51,147 nt of DNA from a virus (taxonomy: Duplodnaviria > Caudoviricetes): positions 1 to 51,147 of the IMG/VR virus record IMGVR_UViG_3300030372_004704. One strand, 5' to 3'. The position numbers were made by a program, and so were the translations under genes. The notes under the pieces are model-generated. The model made no database searches, had not been told where the DNA came from, and saw nothing but the letters and a program-made list of their open reading frames with translations. Shown piece by piece: positions 875 to 20,961 of the stretch (position 1 is its first letter; each line of letters starts with the position of its first letter).

Positions 875-2428
875 TTGAAAGAACAACTAATAGAATTATT
901 AAATGTAATCTTCAAAAGAGATAATGAAGCTATTACTCATATAGTAGATAAGTTTGATTATAAAGAAGAAGATTATACAAGACCACCTGAAAATGTAGAA
1001 CAATTTATAGATGATATGATGTATCAAAATAATGCTCCAGAAGTAAATTGTGAGTTCAGTCATGGTCATATTCATACAGAAGAAACTAGAAGTAATGGCT
1101 TAAAACTACCAGAAGGTACTGTTGAGCTATGGTTTAAGTTCTTCGATGTAAGAACAAGAAGAAAGAAAATATTTAGAACAGGTGATTATTATATGAGATT
1201 AATAAACACAGGTTTTGATAAATGGAGCTGGTTATTTTATATTAAAATGCCAAAAGTAGATGGCGAATCACTTATAACTGAATATGTTTTAGCACAGCAT
1301 CCTCATATAAGCAGAGGCCAAGCTTGTCTTGCAGGTATGGAAACAGGTATAAGAGCATCTATAAATAACTATAATTTCAATGGATTTTTATGGAGAATGA
1401 GAACATTTTTAAATTCATGGAATTTTAGAAGTCCACATCATAATCCTGAAAGATTTGAATATCCTAAGATATTTAAATATGATGATGTTAAAACAATATT
1501 TGATAAAGCAGGAGAAAGTCAAACTCGCATAGTTAATATGAATGCATGGTCATTAGATAATAATAATATAGGTTATCAATTTGATTCATTAATGCTTACT
1601 TCTGCAAGAAAGAAAGAATACGACCCTGAACCTGTTTCTAGAGTTATGTATCATTTATTTGTAGGAAGTTCTTATTTAAATGGAGATAGTTTAAATTATG
1701 GTCAAGTAGGTCAAACGCATATAATACTATATAATTTAGCTCATTGGATAGAAGAGCATATAGATGATACTGAAGGATTAACTATGAAAGAATTGTTAGT
1801 TCTTGCTCATCACATGCTTCATAACTTTTATCATAAAGCTAAAATAGTATCTAGAAATATAGAAGGTACATGGACAGATAATCATAGTAGAATGTCATCA
1901 AATTGGTATAGAGCTGTTGAATCTTGGTATCATTATAGAAATAAATATACAGAGAACCCAGAAAGATTTTCTCATAATAATTCTTCTTATTTATGGTATT
2001 TAAATAAACAAGTTGATAATCCAGGAAGTTGGGAAGTATGTAGAAACTTGATTCAAGAAATACATGATATGAGAGACAGAGCTGAAAGTCATAGAAATGA
2101 CTTAGAATATGATGAACCATCAATAAGAGCTATTAAAAGAAACTTATTTAATGAATTTACAGGGATTTTCAAAGATTTAAATGACATTGAATTTGAAAAT
2201 GAAAGTGAATTTATAAGATGGGTTAATAACTGGCAGCTTGATTCAAATGAATGTAATAACATAGATGATGTAATGAATAAATATCAAGTAAGATTTTTAG
2301 AAATAAAGAAACTTCTTGATGGAATTTACAATCAACTCATAATAGAATATCACGAAAAAGAGCTAAGGAGGCTTACAAATGGCAAAAAACGAAAAAGTAG
2401 TGTGCAAATTGACACTCTCAATTTATAA
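875..2428 (+). CDS. Prokaryotic E2 (UBC-like) domain protein with long C-terminal extension
   Basis: HPHISRGQACL (H142, C151) matches the UBC HPN(I/V)xxxGxICL catalytic signature and is followed by FLNSWNFRSP. TTG start with GAGGT SD. Sits between the Ubl and JAB genes. Confidence 0.75.
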   Translation: MKEQLIELLNVIFKRDNEAITHIVDKFDYKEEDYTRPPENVEQFIDDMMYQNNAPEVNCEFSHGHIHTEETRSNGLKLPEGTVELWFKFFDVRTRRKKIFRTGDYYMRLINTGFDKWSWLFYIKMPKVDGESLITEYVLAQHPHISRGQACLAGMETGIRASINNYNFNGFLWRMRTFLNSWNFRSPHHNPERFEYPKIFKYDDVKTIFDKAGESQTRIVNMNAWSLDNNNIGYQFDSLMLTSARKKEYDPEPVSRVMYHLFVGSSYLNGDSLNYGQVGQTHIILYNLAHWIEEHIDDTEGLTMKELLVLAHHMLHNFYHKAKIVSRNIEGTWTDNHSRMSSNWYRAVESWYHYRNKYTENPERFSHNNSSYLWYLNKQVDNPGSWEVCRNLIQEIHDMRDRAESHRNDLEYDEPSIRAIKRNLFNEFTGIFKDLNDIEFENESEFIRWVNNWQLDSNECNNIDDVMNKYQVRFLEIKKLLDGIYNQLIIEYHEKELRRLTNGKKRKSSVQIDTLNL

Positions 2429-3251
2429 GAAAATAAAACATCTTATATCACTATATCCAAAAACAGAATGGTCTGGTGTAGCATTTTATAATAAAATAGA
2501 ACCAGATAAATATGGTTGGACAACTAATTGGGAGCTTGTAGCATTTTATCCTATTGATTTAGGTAGTAGTGCAGCAACTGAATTTAGTGGTGAAGACCAA
2601 ATAGAAATGATTCAAAAAGCATATGCTAAAAATCCAAAACTTAAAGAATGTTATAAAGGTTTAATACATAGTCATCATACTTTAGGTGGTGGAGCATTTT
2701 TTAGTGGAACTGATAGAGGGCATATGGAAGAAAACGCTAATCAGGTAGGCTATCCATCATTAGTTGTAGCTGATGATTCTACTGGTAGTCCATTTGCATT
2801 TTCATTTAGTTGGGTAGACCAATTAGGTAAAGTACATTGGACTGAAGAAGATGACGGATGTGTAAAGCTTGATTATACAAGTTACAAACCTTCTGGATTA
2901 TTTCAAGATTGTTTAAAATCATTAAAGAGTCAAGAAAAGAAAGTTACAACTTCTTTAACTTATTTTAATGGTCGTCAAGGTAGTTTATTTAATACAGGTT
3001 TATATAATAGAAATAGTATATATCAACCAACTACTAATGAATGGACTGATGATTATTCAGATGATATAAAAGATAAAAAGTATCAAAAATATCTAAAAGC
3101 ATTTAGAAAAGCTGATGCTGATTTCTTTAATTCTGATTTAAATAATGACCCTGATTATGATAAGAAAAGACAGAAAGCTGTTGATACCGAAGCTAGACTT
3201 GATGCCTATTGTGTAGAAAAAGGCTATAATCAAGAGATGGGATGGTTATAA
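2379..3251 (+). CDS. JAB/MPN+ (JAMM) metallopeptidase, deubiquitinase-like
   Basis: E30 (TEWSG), H97-S-H99 and S109-x-x-D112 (IHSHHTLGGGAFFSGTD). AAGGAGG SD. Confidence 0.88.
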   Translation: MAKNEKVVCKLTLSIYKKIKHLISLYPKTEWSGVAFYNKIEPDKYGWTTNWELVAFYPIDLGSSAATEFSGEDQIEMIQKAYAKNPKLKECYKGLIHSHHTLGGGAFFSGTDRGHMEENANQVGYPSLVVADDSTGSPFAFSFSWVDQLGKVHWTEEDDGCVKLDYTSYKPSGLFQDCLKSLKSQEKKVTTSLTYFNGRQGSLFNTGLYNRNSIYQPTTNEWTDDYSDDIKDKKYQKYLKAFRKADADFFNSDLNNDPDYDKKRQKAVDTEARLDAYCVEKGYNQEMGWL

Positions 3252-3437
3252 ATGGCAAAAGATACAATAGAAATACCATTTGATTCTTTTAAAAAGCTGG
3301 TAAGAGCATTTGGTGAAGAATTGTTTAAAAGAAGCCCTGATGCAGATAAAGCAACAGAACCTCTTGATATGCCTTTTCTTGACCATATGCTTGAATTACA
3401 ATTAAAACATACTTTAAAAAAATCAAAGGAGAAATAA
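3252..3437 (+). CDS. Small hypothetical protein within the Ubl cassette
   Basis: 61-aa ORF abutting both the JAB stop and the E1 start. Confidence 0.65.
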   Translation: MAKDTIEIPFDSFKKLVRAFGEELFKRSPDADKATEPLDMPFLDHMLELQLKHTLKKSKEK

Positions 3438-4190
3438 ATGGCAGATAGATTCTTAAGAAATAAGGACTTGATTGACCAAAAGAATCTTGATGAGCTTACA
3501 ATTATAGGAGCTGGTGGTGTAGGTAGTGCACTTATACTATCAGCAGCTATAATGGGCTTTAAAAAGATTCATGTCTGGGACTTTGATGTACTTGAAGAAC
3601 ATAATTTGAGTACAACTATGTATCCAGAGAGTTATTTAGGTGAATCAAAGACAGAAGCAGCTAAAGCTATGGTAAAATACTTTGGTTGTGATACAAAAAT
3701 AATTGAACATGATAAGTTTGGCTATATGGATAGCTTAACACCATGTACAATGATGGCTCCAGATAATATGGAAGTTAGAAAGATGGTATATATGAATTGG
3801 ATACGTACACCAAACAGGAAAGTTCTTGTAGATGGACGTATGGGTGCATTGTCAATGGATATTCACACTGTTGACGCACTTCATGACAGTTATATGAGTA
3901 ACTGGAAACCAAGTAGAGATATACCTGATTTACCTTGTACTGCAAAGCATACAATATTTACAGCTAACATAATAGCTGGCATAATGTTGTCACAAATATT
4001 TAATGTCTTGCATCAAAGGTCATACTATTCGTATATTTGGAAGTCGTTAGCACCGTATATGACTAAAGAGTACGGTAAAGTAAACCCGTTAATCAAAATG
4101 GAGAATAAAAGTGATAAAGAAACAGAAACGCAAACCAGTGTCTCTAAATCCGAAAATTCTTCTAATGTATGGAGCTCCAAAAGTAGGTAA
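3438..4190 (+). CDS. ThiF/MoeB/E1-family Ubl-activating adenylyltransferase
   Basis: RFLRN, IIGAGGVGS nucleotide-binding loop, DFDVLEEHNL, PDNMEVR and VDGRMG motifs. Candidate catalytic C167 (LPCTAK). AAGGAG SD. Confidence 0.92.
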   Translation: MADRFLRNKDLIDQKNLDELTIIGAGGVGSALILSAAIMGFKKIHVWDFDVLEEHNLSTTMYPESYLGESKTEAAKAMVKYFGCDTKIIEHDKFGYMDSLTPCTMMAPDNMEVRKMVYMNWIRTPNRKVLVDGRMGALSMDIHTVDALHDSYMSNWKPSRDIPDLPCTAKHTIFTANIIAGIMLSQIFNVLHQRSYYSYIWKSLAPYMTKEYGKVNPLIKMENKSDKETETQTSVSKSENSSNVWSSKSR

Positions 4191-5397: not shown

Positions 5398-7172
5398 TGT
5401 TTGACTATATTGAAATAGCAGTAGGCAGTCCTCGTCACAGAGGGCAGCTTATTGCAAAGTCAGATTTAGTTAAATATATAAATCATGATACTCCACTATT
5501 TAGGTCAGTTTATTTATATGATAAATCCGCTATAGATTATGCCGAATCAAACGGTGGACTAAAGAATTACTTTGGTCAAAGAGCGATAGATTGGATATTA
5601 ATAGATATAGATAAAGGTGATAATAGTGATGAATACACATTAAATAAAGCTAGAAAAATAATAACAGATATTGATGATATGGGAGTAGATATAAACTATT
5701 CTATACAACCATATTTCAGTGGTAGTGGTTATCATTTAGCTTTACCTAATAGTGTATTTAACTTTCCAAGTAGTGATAATATACATTACTTGGTTAAAGG
5801 GACTCTTAAATCTATTTTTGGTGACATAATAGATAGTTCAATATTTATGAGAACAGGTATATATCGTGTTCAACATACAATAAATAAAAAAACTGATTTG
5901 CATAAAATACCTTTAACTGTACCAGAAATCTTAAATAAAGATGTAAAATGGATAAAGGAATTAGCAGAAACTCCAAGAATCGAATTTGCTTATAGTGAAT
6001 TAGTAGGGAATGGAGAGCTAGAAAGCAAAATCGTTAATAGAGCCCCTAGAATGACCCAAATACGAAAAGTAGTTGAACCAAAGGATGTTATACCATGTGT
6101 ACAAGAAATGTTGACAAATGGGCCCCAAGAGGGCAATAGAAACCAAACGCTTATTAGAATAGCATCACATTTCTATAGACATGGAATACCTTCAGAATAT
6201 GCAAAAACCGCTATTTTACACTGGAATAATAATAGTTTAAATGAAAATAGTGTGGTCGAAAAGGTTGAGTATGTTTACAATAGAGGGTATAGATTTGGTT
6301 GTCAAGATGAGATAATGTTAAAGCATTGTAAGACTAGATGTATACATTTCAAAAGAAAAGACTACCTTATAGACATCCTTAATTCAGATGATTTACAACA
6401 AGAGTTAGAGAAACGAATGTCAGCAGATTTTGATGGACGTTCAATACCTCTTGCTGAAATGTTAGGAGTTAAAGGCTCGGATACAGAAATATATCCAGGC
6501 GAATTAGTAACAGTATTTGGGCCTACAGGCTCAAGTAAAACAACATTAGCTCAATGCTTAGCATTAGGTGTTGATTTTGCTAATGATGATATAAATACTG
6601 AATGGCAAATTCCTACATTGTATTTATCTTTAGAATTATCTGCTTGGTACATGCATAGAAGAAATATGCAAATAGTATCAGGATTGACAAAAGAAGAAAT
6701 AAATGACAATCCTAAAAAAGTATACGAAGAACATAAAGATAAATTAAATCATATGGTTATTCAAACAATACCTCCAAACCTAGAACAAATACAAGCAAAA
6801 GTTAAAGAGTTAAGACCAGCATTAGTTATAGTAGACTATATTGATTTAGTTGAAACTCCACCTCATGTAAGGGGAGAGTACGAACAAATCAAATACATAT
6901 CACACTCGCTTTCAAGTATGGCTGTTAATAACGATTTAATAATAATTCAGGTATCCCAAGTATCTAGAGAATACTCTAGAAATGAGGCATTAGATTTATA
7001 TGCTGGTAAGGGTTCTGGTGCAATAGAAAACGCATCACGTAAAGTGATAGGCTTAAATGGTCAAGCTAATTCATCTGAAAAGTCTTTAGAAGTATTGAAA
7101 AATACTGATGGGGAACTATTCAAAACTGATTTAGAATGGCAACCAAGCTTCAGGTTAAGGAGAAAACAATGA
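5397..7172 (+). CDS. AEP primase fused to SF4/DnaB-like helicase
   Basis: AEP motifs LIDID, FSGSGYH and D..IFMRTGIYR; central EGNRNQ plus Cys cluster; variant Walker A GPTGSSKT, SLEL, Walker B VIVDYID, SQVSR and GSGAIE. Confidence 0.88.
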   Translation: MFDYIEIAVGSPRHRGQLIAKSDLVKYINHDTPLFRSVYLYDKSAIDYAESNGGLKNYFGQRAIDWILIDIDKGDNSDEYTLNKARKIITDIDDMGVDINYSIQPYFSGSGYHLALPNSVFNFPSSDNIHYLVKGTLKSIFGDIIDSSIFMRTGIYRVQHTINKKTDLHKIPLTVPEILNKDVKWIKELAETPRIEFAYSELVGNGELESKIVNRAPRMTQIRKVVEPKDVIPCVQEMLTNGPQEGNRNQTLIRIASHFYRHGIPSEYAKTAILHWNNNSLNENSVVEKVEYVYNRGYRFGCQDEIMLKHCKTRCIHFKRKDYLIDILNSDDLQQELEKRMSADFDGRSIPLAEMLGVKGSDTEIYPGELVTVFGPTGSSKTTLAQCLALGVDFANDDINTEWQIPTLYLSLELSAWYMHRRNMQIVSGLTKEEINDNPKKVYEEHKDKLNHMVIQTIPPNLEQIQAKVKELRPALVIVDYIDLVETPPHVRGEYEQIKYISHSLSSMAVNNDLIIIQVSQVSREYSRNEALDLYAGKGSGAIENASRKVIGLNGQANSSEKSLEVLKNTDGELFKTDLEWQPSFRLRRKQ

Positions 7173-7533: not shown

Positions 7534-8010
7534 ATGAATCCAAATTCCATTAGGAAGTCGCGTAGTCCTAAAGAGTGGGAAACGAAGTTTATGCGTAAGC
7601 TTCGTCCCGCTCACGGGACACATGCTAAAAGAATGTTTCATAGGTTAATGAAAAAGTCTTCTACTTTAAAATCTTCATTGAAGAAAAGAAGTAAAGAATA
7701 TGAAGTCAAATTTAGTATATCATTAACAGAAATAAGAGAAATGTTATATTTAGCATATAGTAAACCTTGCAAGTATTGTAAAAAGAAACTTGATGTAACT
7801 AATATGGTTTGTGACCACAAACATCCTATATCAAGTGGAGGAGGTTCATTTAGAAAAAATCTTCAAATGATATGTGCGTCTTGTAATACTAAAAAAGGTC
7901 CTTTAACAGATAAAGAATATAAAATATTCTTAAAATGGATTAAAAAACAAGATACAAGAGTACAGGATTACATATTAAGGAAACTTGCAAAATCAGATGT
8001 ATTTAATTAG
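7534..8010 (+). CDS. HNH endonuclease
   Basis: CKYC...CDHKHPISSGG...NLQMICASCNTKKG. Confidence 0.88.
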   Translation: MNPNSIRKSRSPKEWETKFMRKLRPAHGTHAKRMFHRLMKKSSTLKSSLKKRSKEYEVKFSISLTEIREMLYLAYSKPCKYCKKKLDVTNMVCDHKHPISSGGGSFRKNLQMICASCNTKKGPLTDKEYKIFLKWIKKQDTRVQDYILRKLAKSDVFN

Positions 8011-8018
8011 GAGATATA

Positions 8019-8165
8019 ATGGCATTAAATGATAAGCAAAGAAAGAAAATGAGAGATATAAATAACAAAAAGAAACAAAGAATTTTAAAAGCCACTGATA
8101 ATGGTCGATGTTGGTGGCTTTATCAAATGTTAACATATAACCCTAGATGCAGGACTACTCAATGA
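8019..8165 (+). CDS. Small basic hypothetical protein (48 aa, not in ORF track)
   Basis: AGGAG SD; MALNDKQRKKMRD...RCWWLYQML...; its TGA overlaps the next ATG. Confidence 0.6.
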   Translation: MALNDKQRKKMRDINNKKKQRILKATDNGRCWWLYQMLTYNPRCRTTQ

Positions 8166-8290
8166 AAAAATTAAACAGATTTAAAAGATTTCTTATAAAT
8201 ATACTTTGGAAATTAGGTGTTAAACCTAGTAAATTATCGATACTCTTTAAAGTATCAACAAGGACTATTTATAGGAACTTATGGAAATAA
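8162..8290 (+). CDS. Small HTH protein (42 aa, not in ORF track)
   Basis: PSKLSILFKVSTRTIYRNL is a helix-turn-helix recognition pattern; ATGA coupling with the upstream ORF. Confidence 0.65.
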   Translation: MKKLNRFKRFLINILWKLGVKPSKLSILFKVSTRTIYRNLWK

Positions 8291-8493
8291 ATAACTGTTT
8301 ACAATGTGGTAATGTCGTTTCAGGTAGCGACTGTGGATATTCATGTATGGCATGTGGCTACAGCGAAACTTGAAGCGATATTACACCAAGATTGAGTTCA
8401 ATCAAAGCAACAGGGGTTAGCAAACAATGGGTTAGGAGACTCAATGAAAAAGATGCTAATAGACGATTACATAAAGAAAACGAAAATAAATAG
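8281..8493 (+). CDS. Small Cys-rich zinc-finger-like protein with in-frame TGA (candidate selenoprotein, 70 aa)
   Basis: MEINNCLQCGNVVSGSDCGYSCMACGYSET-(TGA 8371-8373)-SDITPRL...; the frame stays open to TAG 8491-8493 and a hairpin follows the TGA. Confidence 0.55.
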
Positions 8494-9196
8494 ACACGAA
8501 GGTGCAGGACGTTGGTATTCTCAAGGAAAAAGCGGTAACTGGAAACCTTCAGTTACAACAATCATAGGAGAAACTTGTTCAAAAGGTAAATTCTTTGATG
8601 AATGGCTAATGAAAAATGGTTTAAATGCAATTAATCTTAGAGATGAAGCTGCAGAAAGAGGAACAGCTGTTCATGAAAATATAGAACTTTTATTAAACAA
8701 TGAAGAAATTGTTGTTGATAATGAATTTATCCAAAAATCACTAATGTCTTTTGAAAAGTTTTATAACGAACAAAAGCCTAAGGTTTTTACCCAAGAGATA
8801 TTTCTATATCACAAGGATATGCCCTGGGCTGGTACACCAGATATAATAGCAGAAGTAAATGGTAGTTTATCTATCATAGATATTAAAACTGGTGATTATC
8901 GTAAAACTCACGAAATACAACAACTTATGTATATGGATTTATGGAATAAGATATTTCCTGAATGTCCTATTCAAGATATATATGGATTATATACTAAAGG
9001 TAAATGGATAAAAGAACCTAACTACGGATTTAGAAAGTTTGATTCAAGAACAAAAATACATCATAAAGTATATGATTTATGGTGCTTTTTAAACTTTCCG
9101 TATGGTAAACCTAAACCAAAAAGTAAACCTAAGCTTAAGGGGGTATTTAGACTTGGAGATACAAATAATGGAAAAAGCATTGACGAAATGCTGTGA
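8444..9196 (+). CDS. PD-(D/E)XK exonuclease (Cas4/RecB-like fold)
   Basis: PSVTTII, RGTAVH, E..L, AGTPD, IIDIKTG and QQLMY motifs. Confidence 0.88.
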   Translation: MKKMLIDDYIKKTKINRHEGAGRWYSQGKSGNWKPSVTTIIGETCSKGKFFDEWLMKNGLNAINLRDEAAERGTAVHENIELLLNNEEIVVDNEFIQKSLMSFEKFYNEQKPKVFTQEIFLYHKDMPWAGTPDIIAEVNGSLSIIDIKTGDYRKTHEIQQLMYMDLWNKIFPECPIQDIYGLYTKGKWIKEPNYGFRKFDSRTKIHHKVYDLWCFLNFPYGKPKPKSKPKLKGVFRLGDTNNGKSIDEML

Positions 9197-9629: not shown

Positions 9630-9809
9630 ATGGACTTTTGTGATAAATGTGGAGAAGAGATAAATAACTTAGAACCTTGTTTTAGGTTAGCTTATGGCTT
9701 TTCTCATGAGGGGGATTTTATACAAGATAGTTTCTTAATGATTCATTTAGATTGTATATCAGATGACATGCTTTTAACTAAAATATTAGAGCATATAAAG
9801 AAAAACTAA
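9630..9809 (+). CDS. Small zinc-binding protein (59 aa, not in ORF track)
   Basis: MDFCDKCGEE...IHLDC (CxxC...HxxC). Its stop overlaps the stop of the convergent 594-aa gene. Confidence 0.6.
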   Translation: MDFCDKCGEEINNLEPCFRLAYGFSHEGDFIQDSFLMIHLDCISDDMLLTKILEHIKKN

Positions 9810-11590
9810 ACCTCTTCTTCACTGCTTAAAAAGTCTTTTATTCTGTCATAAGCAAAATCACGTGCTTCTTTTGATTTATCATAAGACCACCTAGCAGCAG
9901 GCTCTAAAGCTTTACCAGCACCATAAAGAGCAGAACCAGCAATAGCTGTACCTCCTATACCTAAAGCAGTTCTACTTGATATAAATTGAGCTTTTTCTAA
10001 AGGATTTAGAGGTCTTTTCATACTCTCTGTATATAATCTATAGTAATCTTCAACAGCTTTATTAAATTTTACACTATGTCTAGAATAAGCACTCATCGGT
10101 CCTCTAGCATCCTCAATAGCTCCACCCTTTAACCTTCCTTTAGTAGGTCTACTTAGCATACCAAATCTTTCTTTAGCATAAGGAGAAAAGGCTTGAGTCT
10201 CAGCTATACCATACTTACCTGTATCAACAATATCATCTAATTGAGCATTTAATTTATCATCATTAAATAGTTTTTTATTATAAACAGTTTCTTTTCTAGG
10301 GCTTCTTTGAACCCACTTTTTAGGAACTTTGTCTGGGTTAATGATAGGAACATTTTTATATTTAACATTTTGAACATTTAATAATGGAGTCTTTCTAAAA
10401 TTAGCCCATTTATCACCTTTTAATTTCATTATCTCTATATCATAAACATCAGTACCAAATATACCAACCTTACCTTTATGTCCATGTTTAGCAGTTTCAT
10501 TAAATACAAGGTTACCATTAAATCCTCCCCAATGATAATTACTTTTACGAGATGGACTGAAATTAACCAAAATAGAACCTTTATCTTTTGTTCTATGTAA
10601 AGCAACTTTATATGTTTTGCCTTCTAAAACCATATGTCTTTCACCTGACTTAATTATTTTATCATAACCTCTTTTTTGAAAAAATCTTCCTAACTTTTCT
10701 AAATGAGCACCTTGTTTCATAAGGCCTGCTTCATGAGCAAGAAAAGCTATTTTAGCTTGACTACTAAACTGAGCATCAATAACTGACTTTTGCATAGCAG
10801 AATGTCTAAAATTAGCAACATTAAGAGATTTAGTACCTTTATGAATACCTTTTAATTTAGGAACTAAACCTTGGTTCCATTTATTTAAAGCTATTTCACC
10901 AATTTCTCTATCTTTTATTCCCATTTTTTTAAATAACCTTCCAGGAGCTTCCCCACCAACACCATATTTAGTATAATTAGCCTCATGTTTTATAAGGTTA
11001 TATAAATCCATTTTTTTTGCTTTTGATAAACCATGTATTTTAACTTGTTGAGCAAAAGCGTTATGCATAACACCAAGTTCTTGTTTACCTAAAAAGGTTA
11101 TTTGTTTTGCAGCTTCTTCAGTTAATTTAGGGTTTTGTAAGACACCTTTGGAATCTCTCCATACACCCATATTTTTATTTACCCAGCTATTTCTATCTCT
11201 TAACACCATAGAATAACCTTTAAATATTCTATCTAAATCCTTTTTTTGTCCAGCACCAAACCCATATTGTTTATAAGCACGGGTTAATTTTTGATTAAAA
11301 ACTTGTTGAGTAGCTGGTTTTACACCTCTAAAAAACTCATTACTAAAAGCCCCCATTTTACCAAGTTTACCAACCCCTTTTCCATAAAAATTAGGAATCA
11401 TTTGCTGCATACTAGTAGCAATACGTTGAAAAGCTCTACCTTTTCCTAATAAAGCTATAGAACCTAAGCCTAACATAGTAGATAAAATTGGATTCTTTTC
11501 TACCCAATTACCAGTACTCTTTATTTGGTTTTCAAAATTCGCAACAAGCGGACTTGACAACTCTTTCATTTTACTTTCAAAATCAGACAT
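9806..11590 (-). CDS. Basic virion/ejection-type protein
   Basis: 594 aa, Lys-rich, with Gly-rich hydrophobic segments near both ends; coupled to the giant gene by a TAATG overlap. Function is inferred. Confidence 0.45.
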   Translation of the reverse strand: MSDFESKMKELSSPLVANFENQIKSTGNWVEKNPILSTMLGLGSIALLGKGRAFQRIATSMQQMIPNFYGKGVGKLGKMGAFSNEFFRGVKPATQQVFNQKLTRAYKQYGFGAGQKKDLDRIFKGYSMVLRDRNSWVNKNMGVWRDSKGVLQNPKLTEEAAKQITFLGKQELGVMHNAFAQQVKIHGLSKAKKMDLYNLIKHEANYTKYGVGGEAPGRLFKKMGIKDREIGEIALNKWNQGLVPKLKGIHKGTKSLNVANFRHSAMQKSVIDAQFSSQAKIAFLAHEAGLMKQGAHLEKLGRFFQKRGYDKIIKSGERHMVLEGKTYKVALHRTKDKGSILVNFSPSRKSNYHWGGFNGNLVFNETAKHGHKGKVGIFGTDVYDIEIMKLKGDKWANFRKTPLLNVQNVKYKNVPIINPDKVPKKWVQRSPRKETVYNKKLFNDDKLNAQLDDIVDTGKYGIAETQAFSPYAKERFGMLSRPTKGRLKGGAIEDARGPMSAYSRHSVKFNKAVEDYYRLYTESMKRPLNPLEKAQFISSRTALGIGGTAIAGSALYGAGKALEPAARWSYDKSKEARDFAYDRIKDFLSSEEEV

Positions 11591-14500
11591 TATTTACCTC
11601 TAGGATGAAATGTTTCACCCTTTTGTATTTGTTTTTTTAATGCAGTTAAATCACCTAATGGAAAGCCCATTAACTTTTCTAATAATCTATTTGGATTTTC
11701 TATAAGATTACCTTTAGCCAATGGAGAAACATCTCTTACCATTCTACCAAAAGGAAGCATTGTGTATACATGATAATTAGCTAGTTTTTCATAATCATTA
11801 TCTAAAAATGCTCTTAAACCTGCAACTGGAAGCCTCATAATAGGAGGAGTAATCATTTGTAATGGAGCTATAGCAGTAGGCCAAGTTCCAAAGAAAGCTT
11901 TATTTCTTTCATTCTCATCACCAAATACCCATTCAGAGGTATCTTTTAACCAGTTATAAGGAGCAGGTAAAGCACTATCAAATAAACTATAAGCAAATAC
12001 ATTAGCAAGAGCTAATACAAATAAATCTGTTTGCATAGTTCTTTTAAATCTTTCAAACTCAGCAGTACCTCTTCTGTAACCTCTAACTTTAGCTTCCCTA
12101 TATACATCATTTCTAAACCTTACAGCATTCCAAGACCATAATTGAAATCTTGTCATAACTTTACCCAGAGCTGTTCTGGCAAACGAAGGACGATAAGGAG
12201 CACTATATAAAAACTGTGTAGCCTTAACTCCTTTTTTAGCTAATTCAACTAAAAATGGATGGTCTGGATTCTTTATTGCTCCACCAAATCTTTCCCAGGC
12301 TTTTATATAATGAGCCATAAAAGCATCTCTACGAAGAGCACGTTCTGGAACAGACATAAATTTAGCAGCTTTTGACATAATGCTTTCACTAACTTTATGC
12401 TTTCTATTTATATCCCTTAAAGTTTCTTTACTCATTTCACCTGTTGCAGTAATCTTTTTAGATATATCAGCAATAAAGTTTTTAACATTAGCAGCCTGAG
12501 CTTCTCTTCCTAATCCAAGTTCAGCTACAATAAACTCAGGTAACACACCATGTTTTACTACAAAGGCATCAACATCTTTTAAAGACTTCCATTCTGGATT
12601 TATTTTTTGTAGTTCAGATACACTTCTTGCTTTTCTTAAATATTCTAAACCTGTTGATTGAATTGTATGTAAAGAACCACCAAATATATTTGCTACAGCA
12701 GATTTAGGATGAGCAAGTAAAGACATTAACTCAAATTTAGCCTCTAAATTAGACCAATGTCTTATATCATTATAATCAACTCTTTCTAAGTCATGTTTAA
12801 CTGTAAGTAGATTTTTGCCTCTTAAACCTAATTTTTTAGCTATTTTATTAGCTTTATCTTTTACATTGTTATCAGCCCACCAAGCATAAGGTGTACCTTT
12901 AACCTTCATTTTAGGGTCATTTAATATAAAGTCAGGTATAATACTAGGACTTCCCATAGATTCAGATATATAAAGCTTTAACCAATTCTGCCATCTAGTT
13001 AATAACGATGTTTTATCACCATAATCTTTTATTTTATGCCACTCATGAGGTTTAGACATGGCTTTTTTAGTAAATTTATTTAATAAATCACGTGACATTA
13101 TTTGTGAAAACTGTTTATAATATGTATTTACTTGGTTACGAGTATATGTTTCAGCAGCAGCTGCATCAATAGACCAGCCTCCTACATGTGCCATACGACT
13201 ATTCATAGAACCTGTCATTTGATTAGCATTATCAAAAGCAGCTATAGGGTCGCTTCCTTCTCTGGTTTTTATATTCTCAACAGCTTTATCAAATAGTTCC
13301 CAATTTTCAGTCCCAGTCATCCAATCACCAGTAAGTGTTTTACTTTTAGTAATAAGTTTTTGAATTTGGATAAGCTTTTCTTCCTTTGACATAACATTTT
13401 CAGGAAGATTTTTTATATAGTCATGGGCTCTCTGAAGAGCATCTAATGCTTTTGATTTACTAAAAAATAAATGAGGATAATAACCTTTTCTAATTCTACC
13501 AACAGGATTTATTTTAAATTTTAAAAGTTTAGTTAAAAGTTTTTGATTACCCATTATCTTAGCTTGTTCAATCATCATAGACCTAGATAAATGCCTTAAA
13601 GGAGTTAAACCATATTTAAGAGGTATACCCTCACCTTTATTAAACGACTTCATTACATCTTTAACAAAAGCTTTATGGTCTATTATAGGTTCTTGTTTAT
13701 TTAAATCATAAAAACCTATAATGTATTTATCCATTGCACCTGGCTCACCTTCAATTGTCTTATACATTTCAGCAAAATGACTATCATATACTTCTTTTAC
13801 TTTTTCAACAATTTGTTTACCAGTTAAGGTCTCTCTTTGGCCTTCAGAGTTTGTTACAATATATTCTTTATCTCTTTTATTATTATAATCACCATCTTTT
13901 AATTCTTGTTTATATTTTTTTCTATACTCATCTGCTTGTATACCTTTTAATTCATTAGGTATCTCTTTACTTCCAAAAATTCTATTTACTTCAGAAACTT
14001 CTGCTTCTGCAACAGCTATTCTCCTTAAAGCTTCACCATCTTTTATTCCATCTAAAAATGCTAAATGTTGTCTTAATTGACCAACTAATCTTTCACCTTC
14101 TTGAACACCTTGTTCTGACATTCTTCCAAGAATATTTTGAGCAGCTTCTATTACATTTGTTGGTTTTCTTACATCACCTTCTACAACTTCACCACCTTTT
14201 TTCTTAAACAAACCCTTACCTTTTAAAAACATTATATCGTATTTCATCATTTCTCTACCAACAGTAGCTGGGAATTGCCACCAATAACGCTTTCTCATAT
14301 CAGGAGTTTTTTCACCAAATAGTTTTTGCCATATAGTCCCTCCTCTAACTTCTTTAAAATAAGCATTCATATCAGCAAAGTCTGCTAAATTCATAGCATT
14401 TAAATCTTTTTCAAACATACCTCTAGTTAAAGCATTTAAATCTTTACCTAATTTATTATTATAAAACTTTAAATTTTCAGCAAGCTCTGTTATTATTTGT

Positions 14501-17500
14501 CTCTTTTCAGAACTTAAAACAGATAAGTCAGCTTTTTCTAAACCTTCAAAACCAGAGAATATTTCATCTATTTCAGTACCTTCAACTTTTTTATCAATAA
14601 ACGATTCATTGACAGTACCTTCTTTAGTTTTATTATTAACTTCAGAATCAAGTTCTGTAGGTTTTTCCCAAGTCTTTTTCATAGATTTTGAATATTCACC
14701 AAAAAATTCTTGAACAACTTCGCTACTAACTTCTTTTGAGTTTAAACCTAATTTAGAAACACTTGTTTTTGCATCTTTCATTTTTAAATGATGCATTAAA
14801 TCTTCATATAATGGGTCATCTTTATATCGTTTTCCCCACTTCTTATCTAATTCATTTATTTTTTCTATAGCACCTCTTCTAAAAGAATTTAACATAAGTA
14901 TATCAGTAATCTTCTTCTCAATAGGAGTTAATTTTTCTTTAAAAGATTTTAATGCCGCATCTATTTCTAGCTGGTCTTTTAAAGCTGAAATATCTTCAAC
15001 AGGTTTTTCTATTTTACCTTTTGGAAAAACTTTCTTTGTTTCTTCTTTTCCATACACTTTTTCATGAGTCTTTATCAAATCATTCCAAAACTCTCTAAAT
15101 TTAGGGTCAGTTCTATCCATACTATAAAAAGCTTCCATTAATTCTTTTCTACCTTTAGCCATTAAATAACTATCTTTTTTTAGCTTTTCAGTAAACTTAT
15201 GGATTTCTTTAAACTTATTAGAGTCTATTTGGTCAAAATATTTAGATAACACTTTAAAAGATACCATATCTGTAAAATCATTTATAACAAAATCTTCAGA
15301 TAGATTTCTTAACTTCTCAAGTATTCTTTTTCTTTCAAGTATATTTTTATATGTGTTATCTTTTAATTCTCTTGCTGTTAATTTATGAGCAAAATATGTT
15401 CCTTTTATTGCATTAACAAATTTAGGATAACTTTTTGATATAATATCTATAGCAGCATCATTCCATAAAAGATTGTCTTTTACATTTTTCACATAAGCAT
15501 TAGGTTTAACTGTGGCAGTAAATCTTCCTAATGCCTTTATTAAATCAGGGTATTTAGCTACTAAATCCGCATGATTAATATAACTTTCTTCTAAAGAACC
15601 TGTTTTTATTCTTCTATAAACAGAATCAGAATAGTCTATACCATTTGCAATTTCAGCTAACTTAGGCAACATAGTATTTTTTACATTATCATTTGGCCAC
15701 ATAACTTTGTTGTTTATACTTTCAGTCATAGTATTTATTTCATGCATATTAAATGCTCTATCAGAAGACCAGTTCCTACTAAACATTCCTTGATTCATTT
15801 TTCTTATTGAATTATACATACCATTATAAGATAAATCATCAAAATCACTCTCTGTTAGTCTAATTTTTTTACCATTTTTTGCTACATCAAAATAAGCATC
15901 GTATAATTTAGTAAACCATAATTTATGATTTTTTAAACCAGCTTCATCTAAAGGGTCAGAAGAAAATGCTATCATTGAAGATGCTAATTTTCTAGCTCCA
16001 GTTACATCTTTTTTAGGTGTTATGACATATTTATCTTTATTTTTTGTAAAAGTTTCCTGACCTTTTTCAAGTAAAGCATTATGAAAAGCTTTTAATAATT
16101 GAACATTATTAGAAGCAGAACCTAACTGATTTCTTCCATCTCTAGCTCTTTCTGAAATCATTACTCTCCAACCTGGCATATATTTCCATACTGCACTATC
16201 TCTTACTTTAGGGTCTATACCAGTTTCTGATATACTATCTTGAATTGTTAATTCTTTTCTAACTTTTTCATTCTTATTATCATAAGTGTATTCTTTTTTA
16301 TTGTCATAAAACTCTTCTTTATTTTTAAACCAAGCATCTTTCCATGATTTTTTAAATCCATCTCCTTTTCCACTTTTTCTTCCACCAAAAAAGATATGAG
16401 CTTCATCACCATCAAGGTCAGCACCGCCTTCTGCTTTCATAGCTCTGCCATGCATTAATACGCCATGGCCTTTTCTTCCAGTAAATCCTTTAAACTTTAA
16501 TACTTGAGCACCACTAGTAGAATCCATAGGAACACGAACAGTAAGAGCTCTCATTACCTCTTCTGCATCTTTTCTAAATCTCCAATTTTTTCCCTTTTTA
16601 TTATAAGCATACCATAAGTCGCCTAAAGTAGTTTTTTCAAACCCTTTTATATGAGTATCTAATTTTAACGCTCTATAAGCTTCATCTAAATAAAATATAT
16701 CATCTCTAGTATTTAATTCAGGAAACTTTTGTTGCATCCATTTATCATAACCTCTCATACGAGCAAGAGCTGAGTTCTTTATTTTAGGTTTAGCTAAGTT
16801 CTCCATTATATAGTTTCTTATAACTTGCACCCTAAAAGGCCTTATATATTTATGTAATAAAACTGGAGTTATATCACCTTCTTTTCCTTTTATTTTTTGC
16901 TTTACAGACCAAGCTTTTGTTTCTTTTATAAGTCTATCAGTACCAGAATTAAATTCAATTAGATTATTGTCAATTTCAGTCATTCTTTCTTGACTCATCT
17001 CTCCAGAAGCAACCATTTCTCTCATAGCTTCTCTATTAAATTTCATTAGTTTTGCATATGCTAGTTCACTAAACTCACTATGTCCATGCTTTATAGCATG
17101 TAATAAGTTATCTATTCCTATATTTTCCATATTATTTAAAATAACTTCTAAATCTTCTTTTCTTGGGTTATTTAGATAATCATCTACCATCTTATTATAT
17201 TTATGTTTACCAACAAATCTATTATAAATAGTTTCTGTAAAAAAATCATTTATCATTTCATTAGAAAATTCTGAAAAAGCATTTTTCCCCATAGACATAA
17301 ACAACTGTTTAGGTATACGTCTTGGGTTTAACATATGATGGTCTTGTAAAACTGAATAATTGTATTTTACATCTTTAACAGGAAGTAAATACTCTATAGC
17401 ATCTAAAGTTAAATTACCTTTTTTGTCTACACTATAATTACCTACTTCTCTTTTCCCAGTTTGTTTTACTGATGACTCTTGCATAATAAAATGTAAACCT

Positions 17501-20500
17501 TTTTTTTGCATAGATTTTGTAGCTGTAGGACCAGCTGAATGCATCATATATTTACCTAATAAAGCACCTAATACTCCATCTGGGCTTGTTATAAATGATT
17601 TATTTTGTCCAGAAGGAGGTTGTCCAGCATCTGCATTTAAAGCGTCAACAACATCATCTCTTACTATAATCATACCATCTACACTAGTTTCGTCATCGGT
17701 ATTTTTATCATTAAGTTTTAATTTTCTTTTTAAAGATTTATCTACATCTTTTACTATAGCATATTTATATAATAAATCACCATCACTTTCTACTAAGTCA
17801 TCAACAAAATTCTTTTTACCATTTCTTGATTCCATATATTCTTTAATAAACTCAGGGTCTGATTTCCATCCAGGAGTAAACCATATTTGGTTTCTTTTAT
17901 TCATTGCTGTAGCACTAGAAATAAATTCTTTATTTTCTGTAACAAAGTCTTTTACAATATTATCCCAAAATCTTTGTTGAGCTGCTTTTGTTTTATATTT
18001 GGATTTTAAGTTAGGATTAATATAATCTGGTCTGAATCCATTCATATTTATATCATATAAAAGATTAGAATAATACATTTCTTTTACATTTTTATCTAAA
18101 CCATAAGCTTTTTTAAAGACACCCATTCCATCTTGTATCTGTTTTAGTCCTTTTTGTCCTAAATTCTTCTCAAGAGCCTTAACAAAAAAGTTCATTTGTG
18201 ATTTATTCTTTAATAAAGGGTGCATTTTAACAAAGATTATTGCATCAGCATCCCCCCTACCACCATAAGGATAGTATCCCTTTTTGAGCATATTTTTAAA
18301 CACTTTGCTTATTACAGACTTATAAGAAGGGCCTTCCCAATTTTCTCTTTCAGATAATTGTCTGTATCTAGATAAAGGTAAATCTTGATAAGCTCCAGTC
18401 TTCCCTTCTGTAATAGTATCGAATATAACAAATGCTGGCTCTTTATCAGTAGATTTACCACCCATTTCTTCATAAACTTCTTCTATTATCTTTTTAGGTT
18501 CAATAACTAACTTTTTATTACCTGCTCTAGTATAAACTTTATCTAACCCAGCAATAGACACACCTCTATCATCTACTCTTAAGTATCTAAGTTGAGTACC
18601 AAAATTCTTTAAAGTAAGCCATTGTCTTAAGTTATTTTTTGCTGCAGGAGTAATTCCTAAAGAAAAACCATCCGCTTTCATTAAATGGTCATTAAACTCA
18701 TCTAATATACCTTCAGAGTCTACTTTTTTATTTTTACCTGAATATTCAGACTTACCTATAATATCCTCTAAAATACTAGCATAGTGCGCTTTTTTAGCAA
18801 GTTTCATTGTAGGTGTAAATCCAGGACTGTCCCAAAGTTCTTTACCGTATTTGTCTATAAAATAAACCGCTCTTTTTTCTAGTTGCCTTTTAGATGCCAT
18901 GCCTATATCATTACCATCTTGAGACTCAGAAGTTTCTAAATCTTCTTCTTTAACAGTAGAATAAGTTTCATCCTTTAACTCTTTTTCTATCTCTTCAATT
19001 TGTCTTGCTATTTTTTTAGCTTCTTTTTCAGCTGTTTTCCTCTGAGAGGCAGATAAGTTTTTATCAGTTGAATCCTTTAAATAAATCTCTAATTCTTGAG
19101 AAAGTATATCCGCTTGGTCATTTAACTCATTTATTTTCTTAAGCTTTTCAGGAGGGATAATGTTTATATCTTTTTCAGAAACCGCTTCTGCTCTTTTATT
19201 TGTTCTAGCTTTTTTCTTTCCAAAAGTAACTGCGTAAATATCTTCTATAGCCTTTTTGCCTGCATTACTTAACTTTCTTGTTCCTATAGCAGCAAATCGT
19301 TTTACAAGTTTAGGTGTTTTGTCAAGCATTCTAAACTTTTTAAGTTTATAATCATATCTATGCCATTTTTTTGAAGCAGTATCCCAAGCGTATACATGTT
19401 TTTTACCAGCATCAATAGCCATTTGAGTAGCCCAACCAGTACCACCTTGTATTTCAGTACCAGCTTTTACTATTTTACCTACAGCATAAAGACCATTAGA
19501 TGTTTTTACTTGCCACCAATTTCTTTGAAGAAGTTTATTTGTAAAGTCTTTAGCCTTTTTACCTTTTAATCTATTTAAACTTTCATCAGCTTTTTTAATC
19601 TTTATATTAGCTTCTGCTAATTCTGCCTCAGTTAAAGGCCTTATCATCCCTGCACTTTTTTTAGCTTTATGTCCTTTAAATGAATAATGAACAAATGGAA
19701 TATCATAGTCTTTACCTATTAAAGCCCAATGAGTGTCTGAACCTTCTGCAGCTCCTGATATACCATGATGAACAACTTTATTTGGTGTAGTTAGTCTAAC
19801 TAATTCTTGACCGCCAACAACTTTCTTTAATTCAGTAAATCCTTCTGGAGTAGGTAGTTTAGTTTTTTTATCTAGAATACCTAATTTTTGCATTAATAAA
19901 TGAGCAGCAGCAGCTCTTTCATCAGGATTTCCATATATTTTTTCGACTTGTTTTAATAGTTCTTTTTGGACTTCTGGTTCAAAACTACTCCATTTTTCTA
20001 ATAAACGAGGGTCTTTTGTAACTGCAAGTTCAGGATTTTTTTGTGATTCTCTTTCTATCTTATCAAGTTGCTTCATTGCTTTAGCTTTATACCAAGGCAT
20101 TTCTTTTCCACCAAAATAAGCACCTAATAAATATTCATAGACCTGTTCAGGAGTAGTAGCTCCTCTCGCAGTAGCAGGTATACCCATAAATAAAGAACCT
20201 GATAAACCTCTAACTATCTTATCAGCAGCTTTATCTCCAGTATTAATAAAATTACCCATAGCTCTAAAAGCTCCACCTGCTACAGCACCACCAAAAGCAG
20301 AATGCATCATAGCATCTACACCTTGTTGCCAAGAACTAATAGCACTAGCAGCACCTAAATGAAATGCGCCTTCTGCCATATGTTTTGCTTGTCCACCTAA
20401 TAGGAAATTACTTGCTGTTTTTACAGCTTCACTTCTTCCTAAAGTAGCACTACTTAATGCAGGTTTAATAACACCCTTAGCTTTTTTTGTAAGCCAATTA

Positions 20501-20961
20501 GCACCCATCATAGGAACTGAACGCTTGTTTAAAGCAGCAGCTGTTTTAGCTAACATAGGGAGTCTAGCCATTTTTAATGGTCCAGCAGCAACCCCTGGAG
20601 CAAAACCAACTAAATGACCTATACTACGAAAAATAGACTCATATTCATTATCAGGAGGGTCTCCAATATCAAATGTAGTAAATCCTCCAAAGAATCCTTT
20701 TCCAAATTCTTTCATTGCTCCCATTATACTAAAGTCTCCCTTATAAAAAGGGATATTATAGTATACTGCATGTTTTTGGATTCTATCTACTTGTTCTTTT
20801 GAAATTACTGCAGGATTTTTCTTATAAGCTTCTATTAAAGTTCTTAGATTAGCTTCAGAAATAGAAGGGTTAAAACCTTCTTCTGTGGCTGCATTGTCCC
20901 CAATAGGATTGTATGGGCTATTTTGAAATGTGGGAAGCTCATAACCTAATTCGTTAGGCAT
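11590..20961 (-). CDS. Giant virion protein, putative virion-packaged two-barrel RNA polymerase with SLOG-like domain
   Basis: GGADLDGD (DxDGD at 16405-16419) preceded by VRVP, VDGMIIVR and ESSVKQ, as in single-chain two-barrel polymerases. SGAAEGSD...GGTGWA...AAIGTR SLOG-like domain. Located in the ejection-protein block. Confidence 0.75.
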   Translation of the reverse strand: MPNELGYELPTFQNSPYNPIGDNAATEEGFNPSISEANLRTLIEAYKKNPAVISKEQVDRIQKHAVYYNIPFYKGDFSIMGAMKEFGKGFFGGFTTFDIGDPPDNEYESIFRSIGHLVGFAPGVAAGPLKMARLPMLAKTAAALNKRSVPMMGANWLTKKAKGVIKPALSSATLGRSEAVKTASNFLLGGQAKHMAEGAFHLGAASAISSWQQGVDAMMHSAFGGAVAGGAFRAMGNFINTGDKAADKIVRGLSGSLFMGIPATARGATTPEQVYEYLLGAYFGGKEMPWYKAKAMKQLDKIERESQKNPELAVTKDPRLLEKWSSFEPEVQKELLKQVEKIYGNPDERAAAAHLLMQKLGILDKKTKLPTPEGFTELKKVVGGQELVRLTTPNKVVHHGISGAAEGSDTHWALIGKDYDIPFVHYSFKGHKAKKSAGMIRPLTEAELAEANIKIKKADESLNRLKGKKAKDFTNKLLQRNWWQVKTSNGLYAVGKIVKAGTEIQGGTGWATQMAIDAGKKHVYAWDTASKKWHRYDYKLKKFRMLDKTPKLVKRFAAIGTRKLSNAGKKAIEDIYAVTFGKKKARTNKRAEAVSEKDINIIPPEKLKKINELNDQADILSQELEIYLKDSTDKNLSASQRKTAEKEAKKIARQIEEIEKELKDETYSTVKEEDLETSESQDGNDIGMASKRQLEKRAVYFIDKYGKELWDSPGFTPTMKLAKKAHYASILEDIIGKSEYSGKNKKVDSEGILDEFNDHLMKADGFSLGITPAAKNNLRQWLTLKNFGTQLRYLRVDDRGVSIAGLDKVYTRAGNKKLVIEPKKIIEEVYEEMGGKSTDKEPAFVIFDTITEGKTGAYQDLPLSRYRQLSERENWEGPSYKSVISKVFKNMLKKGYYPYGGRGDADAIIFVKMHPLLKNKSQMNFFVKALEKNLGQKGLKQIQDGMGVFKKAYGLDKNVKEMYYSNLLYDINMNGFRPDYINPNLKSKYKTKAAQQRFWDNIVKDFVTENKEFISSATAMNKRNQIWFTPGWKSDPEFIKEYMESRNGKKNFVDDLVESDGDLLYKYAIVKDVDKSLKRKLKLNDKNTDDETSVDGMIIVRDDVVDALNADAGQPPSGQNKSFITSPDGVLGALLGKYMMHSAGPTATKSMQKKGLHFIMQESSVKQTGKREVGNYSVDKKGNLTLDAIEYLLPVKDVKYNYSVLQDHHMLNPRRIPKQLFMSMGKNAFSEFSNEMINDFFTETIYNRFVGKHKYNKMVDDYLNNPRKEDLEVILNNMENIGIDNLLHAIKHGHSEFSELAYAKLMKFNREAMREMVASGEMSQERMTEIDNNLIEFNSGTDRLIKETKAWSVKQKIKGKEGDITPVLLHKYIRPFRVQVIRNYIMENLAKPKIKNSALARMRGYDKWMQQKFPELNTRDDIFYLDEAYRALKLDTHIKGFEKTTLGDLWYAYNKKGKNWRFRKDAEEVMRALTVRVPMDSTSGAQVLKFKGFTGRKGHGVLMHGRAMKAEGGADLDGDEAHIFFGGRKSGKGDGFKKSWKDAWFKNKEEFYDNKKEYTYDNKNEKVRKELTIQDSISETGIDPKVRDSAVWKYMPGWRVMISERARDGRNQLGSASNNVQLLKAFHNALLEKGQETFTKNKDKYVITPKKDVTGARKLASSMIAFSSDPLDEAGLKNHKLWFTKLYDAYFDVAKNGKKIRLTESDFDDLSYNGMYNSIRKMNQGMFSRNWSSDRAFNMHEINTMTESINNKVMWPNDNVKNTMLPKLAEIANGIDYSDSVYRRIKTGSLEESYINHADLVAKYPDLIKALGRFTATVKPNAYVKNVKDNLLWNDAAIDIISKSYPKFVNAIKGTYFAHKLTARELKDNTYKNILERKRILEKLRNLSEDFVINDFTDMVSFKVLSKYFDQIDSNKFKEIHKFTEKLKKDSYLMAKGRKELMEAFYSMDRTDPKFREFWNDLIKTHEKVYGKEETKKVFPKGKIEKPVEDISALKDQLEIDAALKSFKEKLTPIEKKITDILMLNSFRRGAIEKINELDKKWGKRYKDDPLYEDLMHHLKMKDAKTSVSKLGLNSKEVSSEVVQEFFGEYSKSMKKTWEKPTELDSEVNNKTKEGTVNESFIDKKVEGTEIDEIFSGFEGLEKADLSVLSSEKRQIITELAENLKFYNNKLGKDLNALTRGMFEKDLNAMNLADFADMNAYFKEVRGGTIWQKLFGEKTPDMRKRYWWQFPATVGREMMKYDIMFLKGKGLFKKKGGEVVEGDVRKPTNVIEAAQNILGRMSEQGVQEGERLVGQLRQHLAFLDGIKDGEALRRIAVAEAEVSEVNRIFGSKEIPNELKGIQADEYRKKYKQELKDGDYNNKRDKEYIVTNSEGQRETLTGKQIVEKVKEVYDSHFAEMYKTIEGEPGAMDKYIIGFYDLNKQEPIIDHKAFVKDVMKSFNKGEGIPLKYGLTPLRHLSRSMMIEQAKIMGNQKLLTKLLKFKINPVGRIRKGYYPHLFFSKSKALDALQRAHDYIKNLPENVMSKEEKLIQIQKLITKSKTLTGDWMTGTENWELFDKAVENIKTREGSDPIAAFDNANQMTGSMNSRMAHVGGWSIDAAAAETYTRNQVNTYYKQFSQIMSRDLLNKFTKKAMSKPHEWHKIKDYGDKTSLLTRWQNWLKLYISESMGSPSIIPDFILNDPKMKVKGTPYAWWADNNVKDKANKIAKKLGLRGKNLLTVKHDLERVDYNDIRHWSNLEAKFELMSLLAHPKSAVANIFGGSLHTIQSTGLEYLRKARSVSELQKINPEWKSLKDVDAFVVKHGVLPEFIVAELGLGREAQAANVKNFIADISKKITATGEMSKETLRDINRKHKVSESIMSKAAKFMSVPERALRRDAFMAHYIKAWERFGGAIKNPDHPFLVELAKKGVKATQFLYSAPYRPSFARTALGKVMTRFQLWSWNAVRFRNDVYREAKVRGYRRGTAEFERFKRTMQTDLFVLALANVFAYSLFDSALPAPYNWLKDTSEWVFGDENERNKAFFGTWPTAIAPLQMITPPIMRLPVAGLRAFLDNDYEKLANYHVYTMLPFGRMVRDVSPLAKGNLIENPNRLLEKLMGFPLGDLTALKKQIQKGETFHPRGK

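Follow-up and report, generated by a model that had tools for sequence, protein, structure and literature searches.

The closest described systems are the bacterial selenoprotein genes with a bSECIS element, the type of which is the formate dehydrogenase gene of E. coli. The legend of Fig. 2 in PMC13188914 gives for this element a loop of 3–9 nt, a stem of 4–16 bp and a spacing of 16–37 nt, and the same source expects a G within the first two nucleotides of the loop, as a rule with G or U behind it, and sets a minimum free energy (MFE) of -7.5 kcal/mol or lower. Among viruses, the section of a recoding review that deals with viral selenoproteins names two poxvirus glutathione peroxidase (GPx) genes, and for the one in fowlpox virus it describes a SECIS that lies in the coding sequence (PMC8310308). 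According to the relevant part of an ocean survey, viral sequences are lacking or very rare in selenoprotein families (PMC9402790). As far as the accessible texts go, no report of a phage selenoprotein was found in the literature, and the supplements of surveys may list the family unnamed; the words “phage” and “virus” are absent from the main text of some recent prokaryotic selenoproteome papers, and another such paper is without “phage”. A different use of UGA is found in phage Qbeta, where the UGA of the coat gene is read through to give the longer A1 protein; to our knowledge, neither a Cys-aligned column nor a SelB-type hairpin is known for this gene.

The gene considered here lies at 8281-8493 (+) of a phage sequence of 51,147 bp, which is called the window in the following, i.e., the whole stretch of DNA that was analysed; it is an entire virus record and is rated complete. 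The preliminary description of this DNA had proposed the gene as a phage selenoprotein hidden by an in-frame TGA. Comparison with relatives suggests that this is probably right, and that 8281-8493 is a zinc-ribbon selenoprotein gene whose UGA (8371-8373) would be decoded by SelB of the host. The pattern in this single sequence is within chance and exceeds it by far only once the relatives are compared. The comparative pattern consists of an invariant UGA, Cys in homologues at the same column, an open frame and a covarying hairpin that carries a conserved loop at a fixed distance.

The zinc-ribbon gene and its surroundings

The earlier reading of the sequence, a zinc ribbon of 30 codons followed by a TGA and 39 open codons, was confirmed. 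The start codon is the ATG at 8281, and a Shine–Dalgarno-like AGGA (8273-8276, +), the AGG of which is kept in the relatives compared, lies 4 nt 5′ of it. The ribbon part (8281-8370, +) follows the pattern CxxCG-x7-C-x3-CxxCGY, with Cys at codons 6, 9, 18, 22 and 25, and all five Cys columns are invariant in 24–29 aligned sequences. The third positions of codons 6–13 (8296-8319) are near-invariant in 30 relatives, unlike those of codons 15–30, which suggests an extra constraint at the nucleotide level. The TGA at 8371-8373 (+), the proposed selenocysteine codon for residue 31, is preceded by S-E-T and followed by S-D, and the spacer between it and the hairpin (8374-8389, +) codes for S-D-I-T-P and the start of an R. 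The tail of 39 codons (8374-8490, +), which is read only on decoding of the UGA and is predicted to be disordered, contains the motif G-V-S-K-Q-W-V-R-R-L-N-E (8413-8448, +) and is closed by a TAG at 8491-8493 (+).

The tail also contains the conserved AGGAG (8434-8438, +) that forms the ribosome-binding site of the downstream gene, a PD-(D/E)XK-type nuclease gene (8444-9196, +) in the +1 frame that overlaps the tail by 50 nt and matches PDDEXK_1 with E = 7e-4 and 20 bits, under the 22-bit cut-off. Upstream, a small HTH-like ORF (8147-8290, +), with HTH matches that are sub-threshold only, ends in a TAA and runs 10 nt into the zinc-ribbon gene. The order of genes in this replication module is Sak4-like ATPase, primase-helicase, winged HTH, HNH, small ORFs, zinc-ribbon gene and nuclease, and in distant lineages the zinc-ribbon gene is again located behind primase-helicase and HNH genes. 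Other small CxxC-containing ORFs were seen in the same module, i.e., 9630-9809 (+) in the window, with 59 residues and no family match, and 2615-2770 in the relative L048, with 51 residues. Elsewhere in the window there are terminase, portal and major head genes, and its structural arm holds two giant ORFs (11590-20961, -, 3123 codons; 27323-34603, -, 2426 codons). The early region carries a ubiquitin-like activation and peptidase pair (2379-4190, +), in which a ThiF-family E1-like protein (3438-4190, +, E = 3e-15) is encoded directly behind ORF 2379-3251 with its sub-threshold match to Prok-JAB (E = 3e-4). No tRNA genes were found in the window, and tRNA-Sec was absent from the window and the five near-complete relatives that were searched. 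Searches of GenBank phages for cultured relatives (blastn and tblastn with the region, the small protein, the primase-helicase, a 545-residue ORF, TerL and the database proteins P0017 and P0008) returned nothing or matches below 30% identity. Genome contigs scanned with the small protein and with TerL gave zero matches, and no cellular counterpart of the zinc-ribbon protein was found in them.

Structure prediction with AF2 gave four short strands for residues 1–30 (pLDDT 72–78) and a pLDDT below 50 for residues 36–70. Foldseek returned no significant match, the best rows being the ribbons of RPB9, A12.2, C11 and TFS4 (E = 0.2–0.5), and no family was found at threshold in Pfam or at cut-off in NCBIfam. 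The window protein scores 14.1 bits against TFS (cut-off 64.75), the TFS matches overall lie at 14–18 bits (cut-off 65), and HVO_2523 is matched by the homologue P0028 only, at 26.1 bits (cut-off 60). Publicly, the protein has no name beyond “hypothetical protein”, and the gene calls are of two kinds, namely W forms under code 4 (P0002, P0004, P0008 and P0016–P0018) and forms of 30 residues (P0019, P0021 and P0026).

The TGA column in relatives

The locus was judged by criteria for bacterial-type selenoprotein genes that were taken from the methods sections of PMC1088965 and PMC1976440, i.e., conservation of the in-frame TGA between two or more different sequences, at least two Cys homologues aligned with the TGA, and coding that continues past the TGA in the same frame. 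The TGA occupies the column in 148 of 148 instances, which represent 71 distinct versions from about 12 lineages that reach down to roughly 20–40% protein identity. TAA or TAG at this position, which the preliminary description had set against a selenoprotein, occurs in none of the 71 versions. The 21 virome contigs that were found via the nuclease all have the gene with TGA at codon 31; further scans led to 57 non-identical contexts, with TGA in all; and a profile search together with a degenerate scan added 31 loci, which represent eight or more additional lineages. In each of these 31 distant loci the TGA lies exactly three codons past CG[YF] and is followed by acidic residues. The 39 ORFs of the window end in TAA (22), TAG (11) or TGA (6), and in the same relatives the nuclease gene stops with TGA (37), TAA (5) or TAG (4) and the upstream ORF with TAA (50) or TAG (4). 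Compared with the nuclease-gene stops in the same relatives, the invariant TGA gives a Fisher p of 4e-4. Another TGA of the window (35500-35502), the stop of ORF 35500-35808 on the - strand, is followed by 27 open codons and, 16 nt downstream, by a 6-bp hairpin with a GG loop; this hairpin is probably due to chance, the background being 3–8%.

The preliminary description had pointed to small prokaryotic zinc-finger proteins that end their motif in CSD, had assigned the TGA to the Cys of this CSD, and had called for pairs of Cys and TGA at the column. Such pairs were found in three clusters of Cys forms, known from protein sequences only. The first is made up of P0011, P0014 and P0015 (from three contigs), which read on for 22 residues behind the Cys, and the other two are P0012 and P0028, both with S-E-T-C-S-D, the context of the window with Cys for the TGA, and reading on for 18 and 11 residues, respectively. 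In the Cys forms the Cys sits 3 residues past CG[YF], which is the same column as that of the TGA. P0011 shares 64% identity with the ribbon of L138 (E = 2e-13), and P0028 shares 45% with the window protein over 38 residues, straight through the column. When the column was masked (the profile carried C there), the Cys forms matched the profile of the window family with E = 0.011–0.038 in a library of 1.84 billion proteins. A metagenome-scan pattern that demanded a real Cys codon at the column gave no confirmed locus; the DNA of P0008 and P0011 had no match among viral contigs, and P0028 as a query found no relatives. Variants from short contigs, known only as database proteins, have Arg (P0003) or Gly (P0020) at the column, and P0005, likewise a database protein from a short contig, has lost 22 codons in frame, among them those of the second zinc knuckle and the TGA.

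The hairpin and the frame behind the TGA

The hairpin GATTG/AGTT/CAATC at 8390-8403 (+), which had been offered as a bacterial SECIS element, was confirmed as described: a 5-bp stem (8390-8394 with 8399-8403) carries the loop AGUU (8395-8398), which starts 21 nt past the TGA and has a G at its second position. In 67 of the 71 versions, a stem of at least 5 bp bears a loop of 3–5 nt that starts 16–23 nt past the UGA, with G and then G or U at the loop start; the stem is 4 bp long in L120, L133 and L141, and L128 has no hairpin. Counted by lineage, the hairpin is present in 11 of 12, always 16–23 nt past the UGA. The stem sequences are unrelated between lineages and the loop keeps GGU, AGU or GUU (AGUU in the window and GGUU, GGUC, (A)GGU(U), GUU/GUA, GGA and AGUUA in other lineages). 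When 10 sequences from three lineages are aligned without gaps, pairing is seen in 93.8% of the cells, compared with 72.8 ± 3.6% after shuffling (0 of 500 shuffles reach the observed value); five of the eight pairs have changed on both sides, and slid registers pair in 35–52% of cells. Within the window clade (29 sequences), 100% of the hairpin cells are paired, with G-C replaced by A-U in five. A lower stem around the hairpin (8381-8419, +; 8381-8387 with 8413-8419, imperfect in the window) is hinted at by pairing in 82% of the cells of these 29 sequences, with zero pairs changed on both sides, and by its presence in the MFE folds of several relatives (-8 to -12 kcal/mol); it is missing from the fold of the window.

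A comparable hairpin with a stem of at least 5 bp follows 59 of the 1806 TGA sites in the window (3.3%; 7.8% for at least 4 bp) and 6 of the 80 in-frame TGAs with frames open on both sides. The 60-nt fold of the window (-6.0 kcal/mol) is no more stable than shuffles (z = 0.06), and the hairpin alone has -2.4 kcal/mol. Of the four bSECIS constraints, the hairpin fits three. The loop of 4 nt and the stem of 5 bp fall within the published sizes (a stem of at least 4 bp is found in 70 of the 71 versions), the loop AGUU supplies the G, and the spacing from UGA to loop is 21 nt in the window and 16–23 nt in every hairpin-bearing lineage; to this the covarying stems can be added. The free energy of the window hairpin, taken alone or over 60 nt, does not reach -7.5 kcal/mol, a value reached in the L094 family by the hairpin alone (-7.7 to -10.1 kcal/mol) and by hairpin plus lower stem in some close relatives. 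A match to Rfam was likewise not obtained, with none of the SECIS families found in 8000-8700 and one unrelated chance match (E = 6.5). The covariance model R1, made from three distant lineages, missed the window element and gave 37 matches at E 1–10, none of them at 8371.

Of the 70 uncensored versions, 68 have 21 or more open codons behind the TGA in the frame of the ribbon (frame 0), and the other two have 10 and 2. This holds although the next gene differs, being ORF-B in some lineages and another zinc finger or an HTH protein in others, with no overlapping gene in still others. In a null derived from real genes of the phage, the probability that an overlapping frame reaches 21 open codons or more is 0.033 (-1) or 0.131 (+1); 10 of 12 lineages reach this length, and the corresponding binomial P <= 8e-8 assumes independent lineages and is hence overstated. 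Codons 33–38 show synonymous changes only among 30 unique close relatives, bar one Thr-to-Ser, and 11 of 12 lineages have retained an acidic residue at +2. The exception is L048, which has Gly-Tyr behind the TGA and then, after these two codons, TAA TAA, and in which the hairpin contains the AGGAGG of the next gene. The tails range from 23 to 44 codons among close relatives and are poorly conserved across lineages.

The conservation downstream of the TGA, which the preliminary description had put forward as a check, has a mixed origin. The residues just after the column are kept and the frame is open, as described above, and in the L016 and L019 clades and the L094 family a separate +1-frame gene, which takes up much of the sequence behind the TGA, explains part of the downstream conservation. 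In the L016 and L019 clades the +1 frame encodes a G-V-S-K-x-W peptide that is provided with a separate GGAGG and ATG at the hairpin; a GGAGG and ATG of ORF-B are seen at this place in 13 unique versions. A 4-nt length difference leads to the +1-frame peptide, ~31 nt past the TGA, in L016-L018, L019, L043, L044, L079-L087 and L090; the protein of the two sister clades is separate, basic and 40–44 residues long. In the L094 family, a real +1-frame gene starts ~44 nt past the UGA. Throughout L094-L110 this conserved gene has 54–94 codons, ends in G-V-S-x-x-W-x-R-R and overlaps the frame-0 tail by ~75–95 nt, so that decoding of the UGA would leave a long region coding in both frames. In the tails of the L094 family, the conserved motif at the C-terminus is a by-product of this gene and was rejected as evidence for frame 0.

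The arrangement in the window clade is different in that the motif G-V-S-x-x-W-x-R-R lies in frame behind the UGA and lacks a separate start codon: ATG and GTG are both absent from the stretch that leads from the TGA to the motif, and TTG (24 of 30 versions) or TTA (6 of 30) is found instead. The tail of this clade has absorbed the start-less ORF-B motif, which argues for decoding of the UGA. A +1 frameshift joining the ribbon to ORF-B was rejected because of +1 stops between the UGA and the ORF-B AUG in L094, L099, L100, L101 and L109; the +1 frame of the window is also stopped, by a TGA inside the hairpin.

Proposed decoding of the UGA and comparison with known systems

Three other ways of accounting for the TGA were weighed against decoding as selenocysteine. 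Reassignment of TGA throughout the genome of the phage or host, to Trp (code 4) or Gly (code 25), would fit the W at the column in P0002, P0004, P0008 and P0016–P0018 and the G in P0020, but the W is a TGA wherever the DNA was seen (P0002 and P0004 match TGA loci and P0017 matches the L132 type), which makes these residues artefacts of gene calling. TGA also behaves as the normal stop that the preliminary description had taken it for, ending 6 of the 39 ORFs in the window, among them those at 7170-7172, 8163-8165 and 9194-9196, and under code 11 both giant ORFs (3123 and 2426 codons) are uninterrupted, so that reassignment has virtually no chance of being correct. A plain stop is unlikely for other reasons. 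It would leave a 30-residue zinc ribbon, as in the public calls P0019, P0021 and P0026, with a hairpin and a downstream conservation that serve the next gene by coupling, by a ribosome-binding site presented in the loop, or by coding. This would agree with the GGAGG and ATG that ORF-B has at the hairpin in 13 unique versions, with the separate start ~44 nt past the UGA in the L094 family, with L048, where stop codons follow two codons past the TGA and the hairpin holds the AGGAGG of the next gene, and with the thermodynamic weakness of the window hairpin. However, a plain stop does not account for the use of TGA by all 71 versions despite the preference for TAA, and it leaves unexplained both the Cys homologues that read on and a frame that stays open for 21 codons or more across downstream genes that are unrelated; moreover, the next start varies in its distance from the hairpin, from before it to ~30 nt after it, and the window clade has neither a Shine–Dalgarno sequence nor an ATG at the hairpin. 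An arrangement of two coupled mini-genes with a plain stop, which was based on the ORF-B start and L048, became less likely when the Cys forms, the distant lineages and the null for the open frame were taken into account.

Programmed read-through of the UGA without selenocysteine would have a near-cognate tRNA (Trp, Cys or Arg) accepted at low frequency, perhaps with help from the hairpin, and would yield the short ribbon plus a small amount of an extended one, by analogy with the coat read-through protein of Qbeta. An invariant TGA and an open frame are accounted for just as well in this way, the Arg variant P0003 suggests that the residue may be replaceable, and the extended isoform could be the purpose in the window clade, where the tail contains a motif that sister clades encode as a separate protein. 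Read-through is nevertheless quite unlikely: in most lineages the tails lack conservation, are disordered and share their DNA with other genes in a different frame, the opposite of what would be expected if the purpose lay in the extension; the stable sense-codon homologues have Cys and not Trp; and the conserved loop, with G and then G or U at a fixed 16–23 nt, fits a SelB-type signal.

In the selenoprotein reading, which is preferred here, the product would have ~70 residues, i.e., the 30-residue ribbon with its five invariant Cys, Sec31 and a disordered, charged and poorly conserved tail. During infection, SelB-GTP-Sec-tRNA(Sec) of the host would bind the hairpin at 8390-8403, possibly extended by the lower stem, SelB would bring Sec to the UGA, and the ribosome would continue to the TAG at 8491-8493, across the start of the nuclease gene. 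Upon failed delivery of Sec, RF2 would release a 30-residue ribbon without the sixth conserved chalcogen. This presumes SelB with Sec as the decoder and a host that has selA, selB, selC and selD. As for the function of the protein, it is our guess that Sec31 and Cys18 make a redox-active or metal-binding site beside the zinc site of Cys6, Cys9, Cys22 and Cys25, and, equally as a guess, that the protein is a small ribbon that binds nucleic acid or polymerase. A bolder proposal, which is conceivable but doubtful, is that this is the first natural phage selenoprotein family, in which the UGA and SECIS double as a selenium- and SelB-dependent switch and Sec and Cys18 form a redox-sensitive metal site. 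In such a switch, Sec-inserting ribosomes would cross the ribosome-binding site and start of the next gene of the replication module (in the window, the nuclease at 8444), and the selenium status of the host would set the form of the ribbon (30 residues or full length) as well as the expression of the downstream neighbour.

If the selenoprotein reading is true, Sec decoding would extend to bacteriophages, and the family would be the first selenoprotein family known from them. The widespread uncultured phages with genomes of 44–56 kb that carry the gene would then infect Sec-competent hosts, which would be a sequence-based clue to the host. For annotation it matters that standard gene calling gives the 30-residue form or, under code 4, a Trp at the column. 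With ~210 nt, the gene would be a small test system for Sec insertion signals in A/T-rich genomes, for which the published free-energy cut-off may be too strict, and it raises the question of what Sec adds to a zinc ribbon in a replication module.

Among known proteins, the N-terminal ribbons of the TFS/RPB9 type and the HVO_2523 micro-proteins resemble the family in size (~30 residues), in their two CxxC knuckles and in having four short strands; the phage family differs from these by a fifth invariant Cys and the Sec/Cys column, and all matches to them are sub-threshold. Qbeta is similar in that the read-through of a UGA lengthens the protein of a phage gene, but the extension of the phage ribbon is mostly unconserved. 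The poxvirus glutathione peroxidases (of molluscum contagiosum virus and fowlpox virus), as presented in that section of the recoding review, are likewise encoded by a virus and need the Sec machinery of the host (PMC8310308); they are, however, captured cellular genes of eukaryotic viruses with a eukaryotic SECIS, whereas the phage case has a bacterial-type signal. The bacterial bSECIS selenoprotein genes share the most with the phage gene, i.e., an in-frame UGA aligned with Cys, a translation that continues in frame, and a stem-loop in the coding region just downstream, with G and then G or U in a small loop at a spacing of 16–37 nt. Unlike these, the gene described here is a phage gene that has no relative in a named family and a tail that overlaps the next gene out of frame, and in the window its stem is made of 5 A/U-rich bp and misses the -7.5 kcal/mol criterion.
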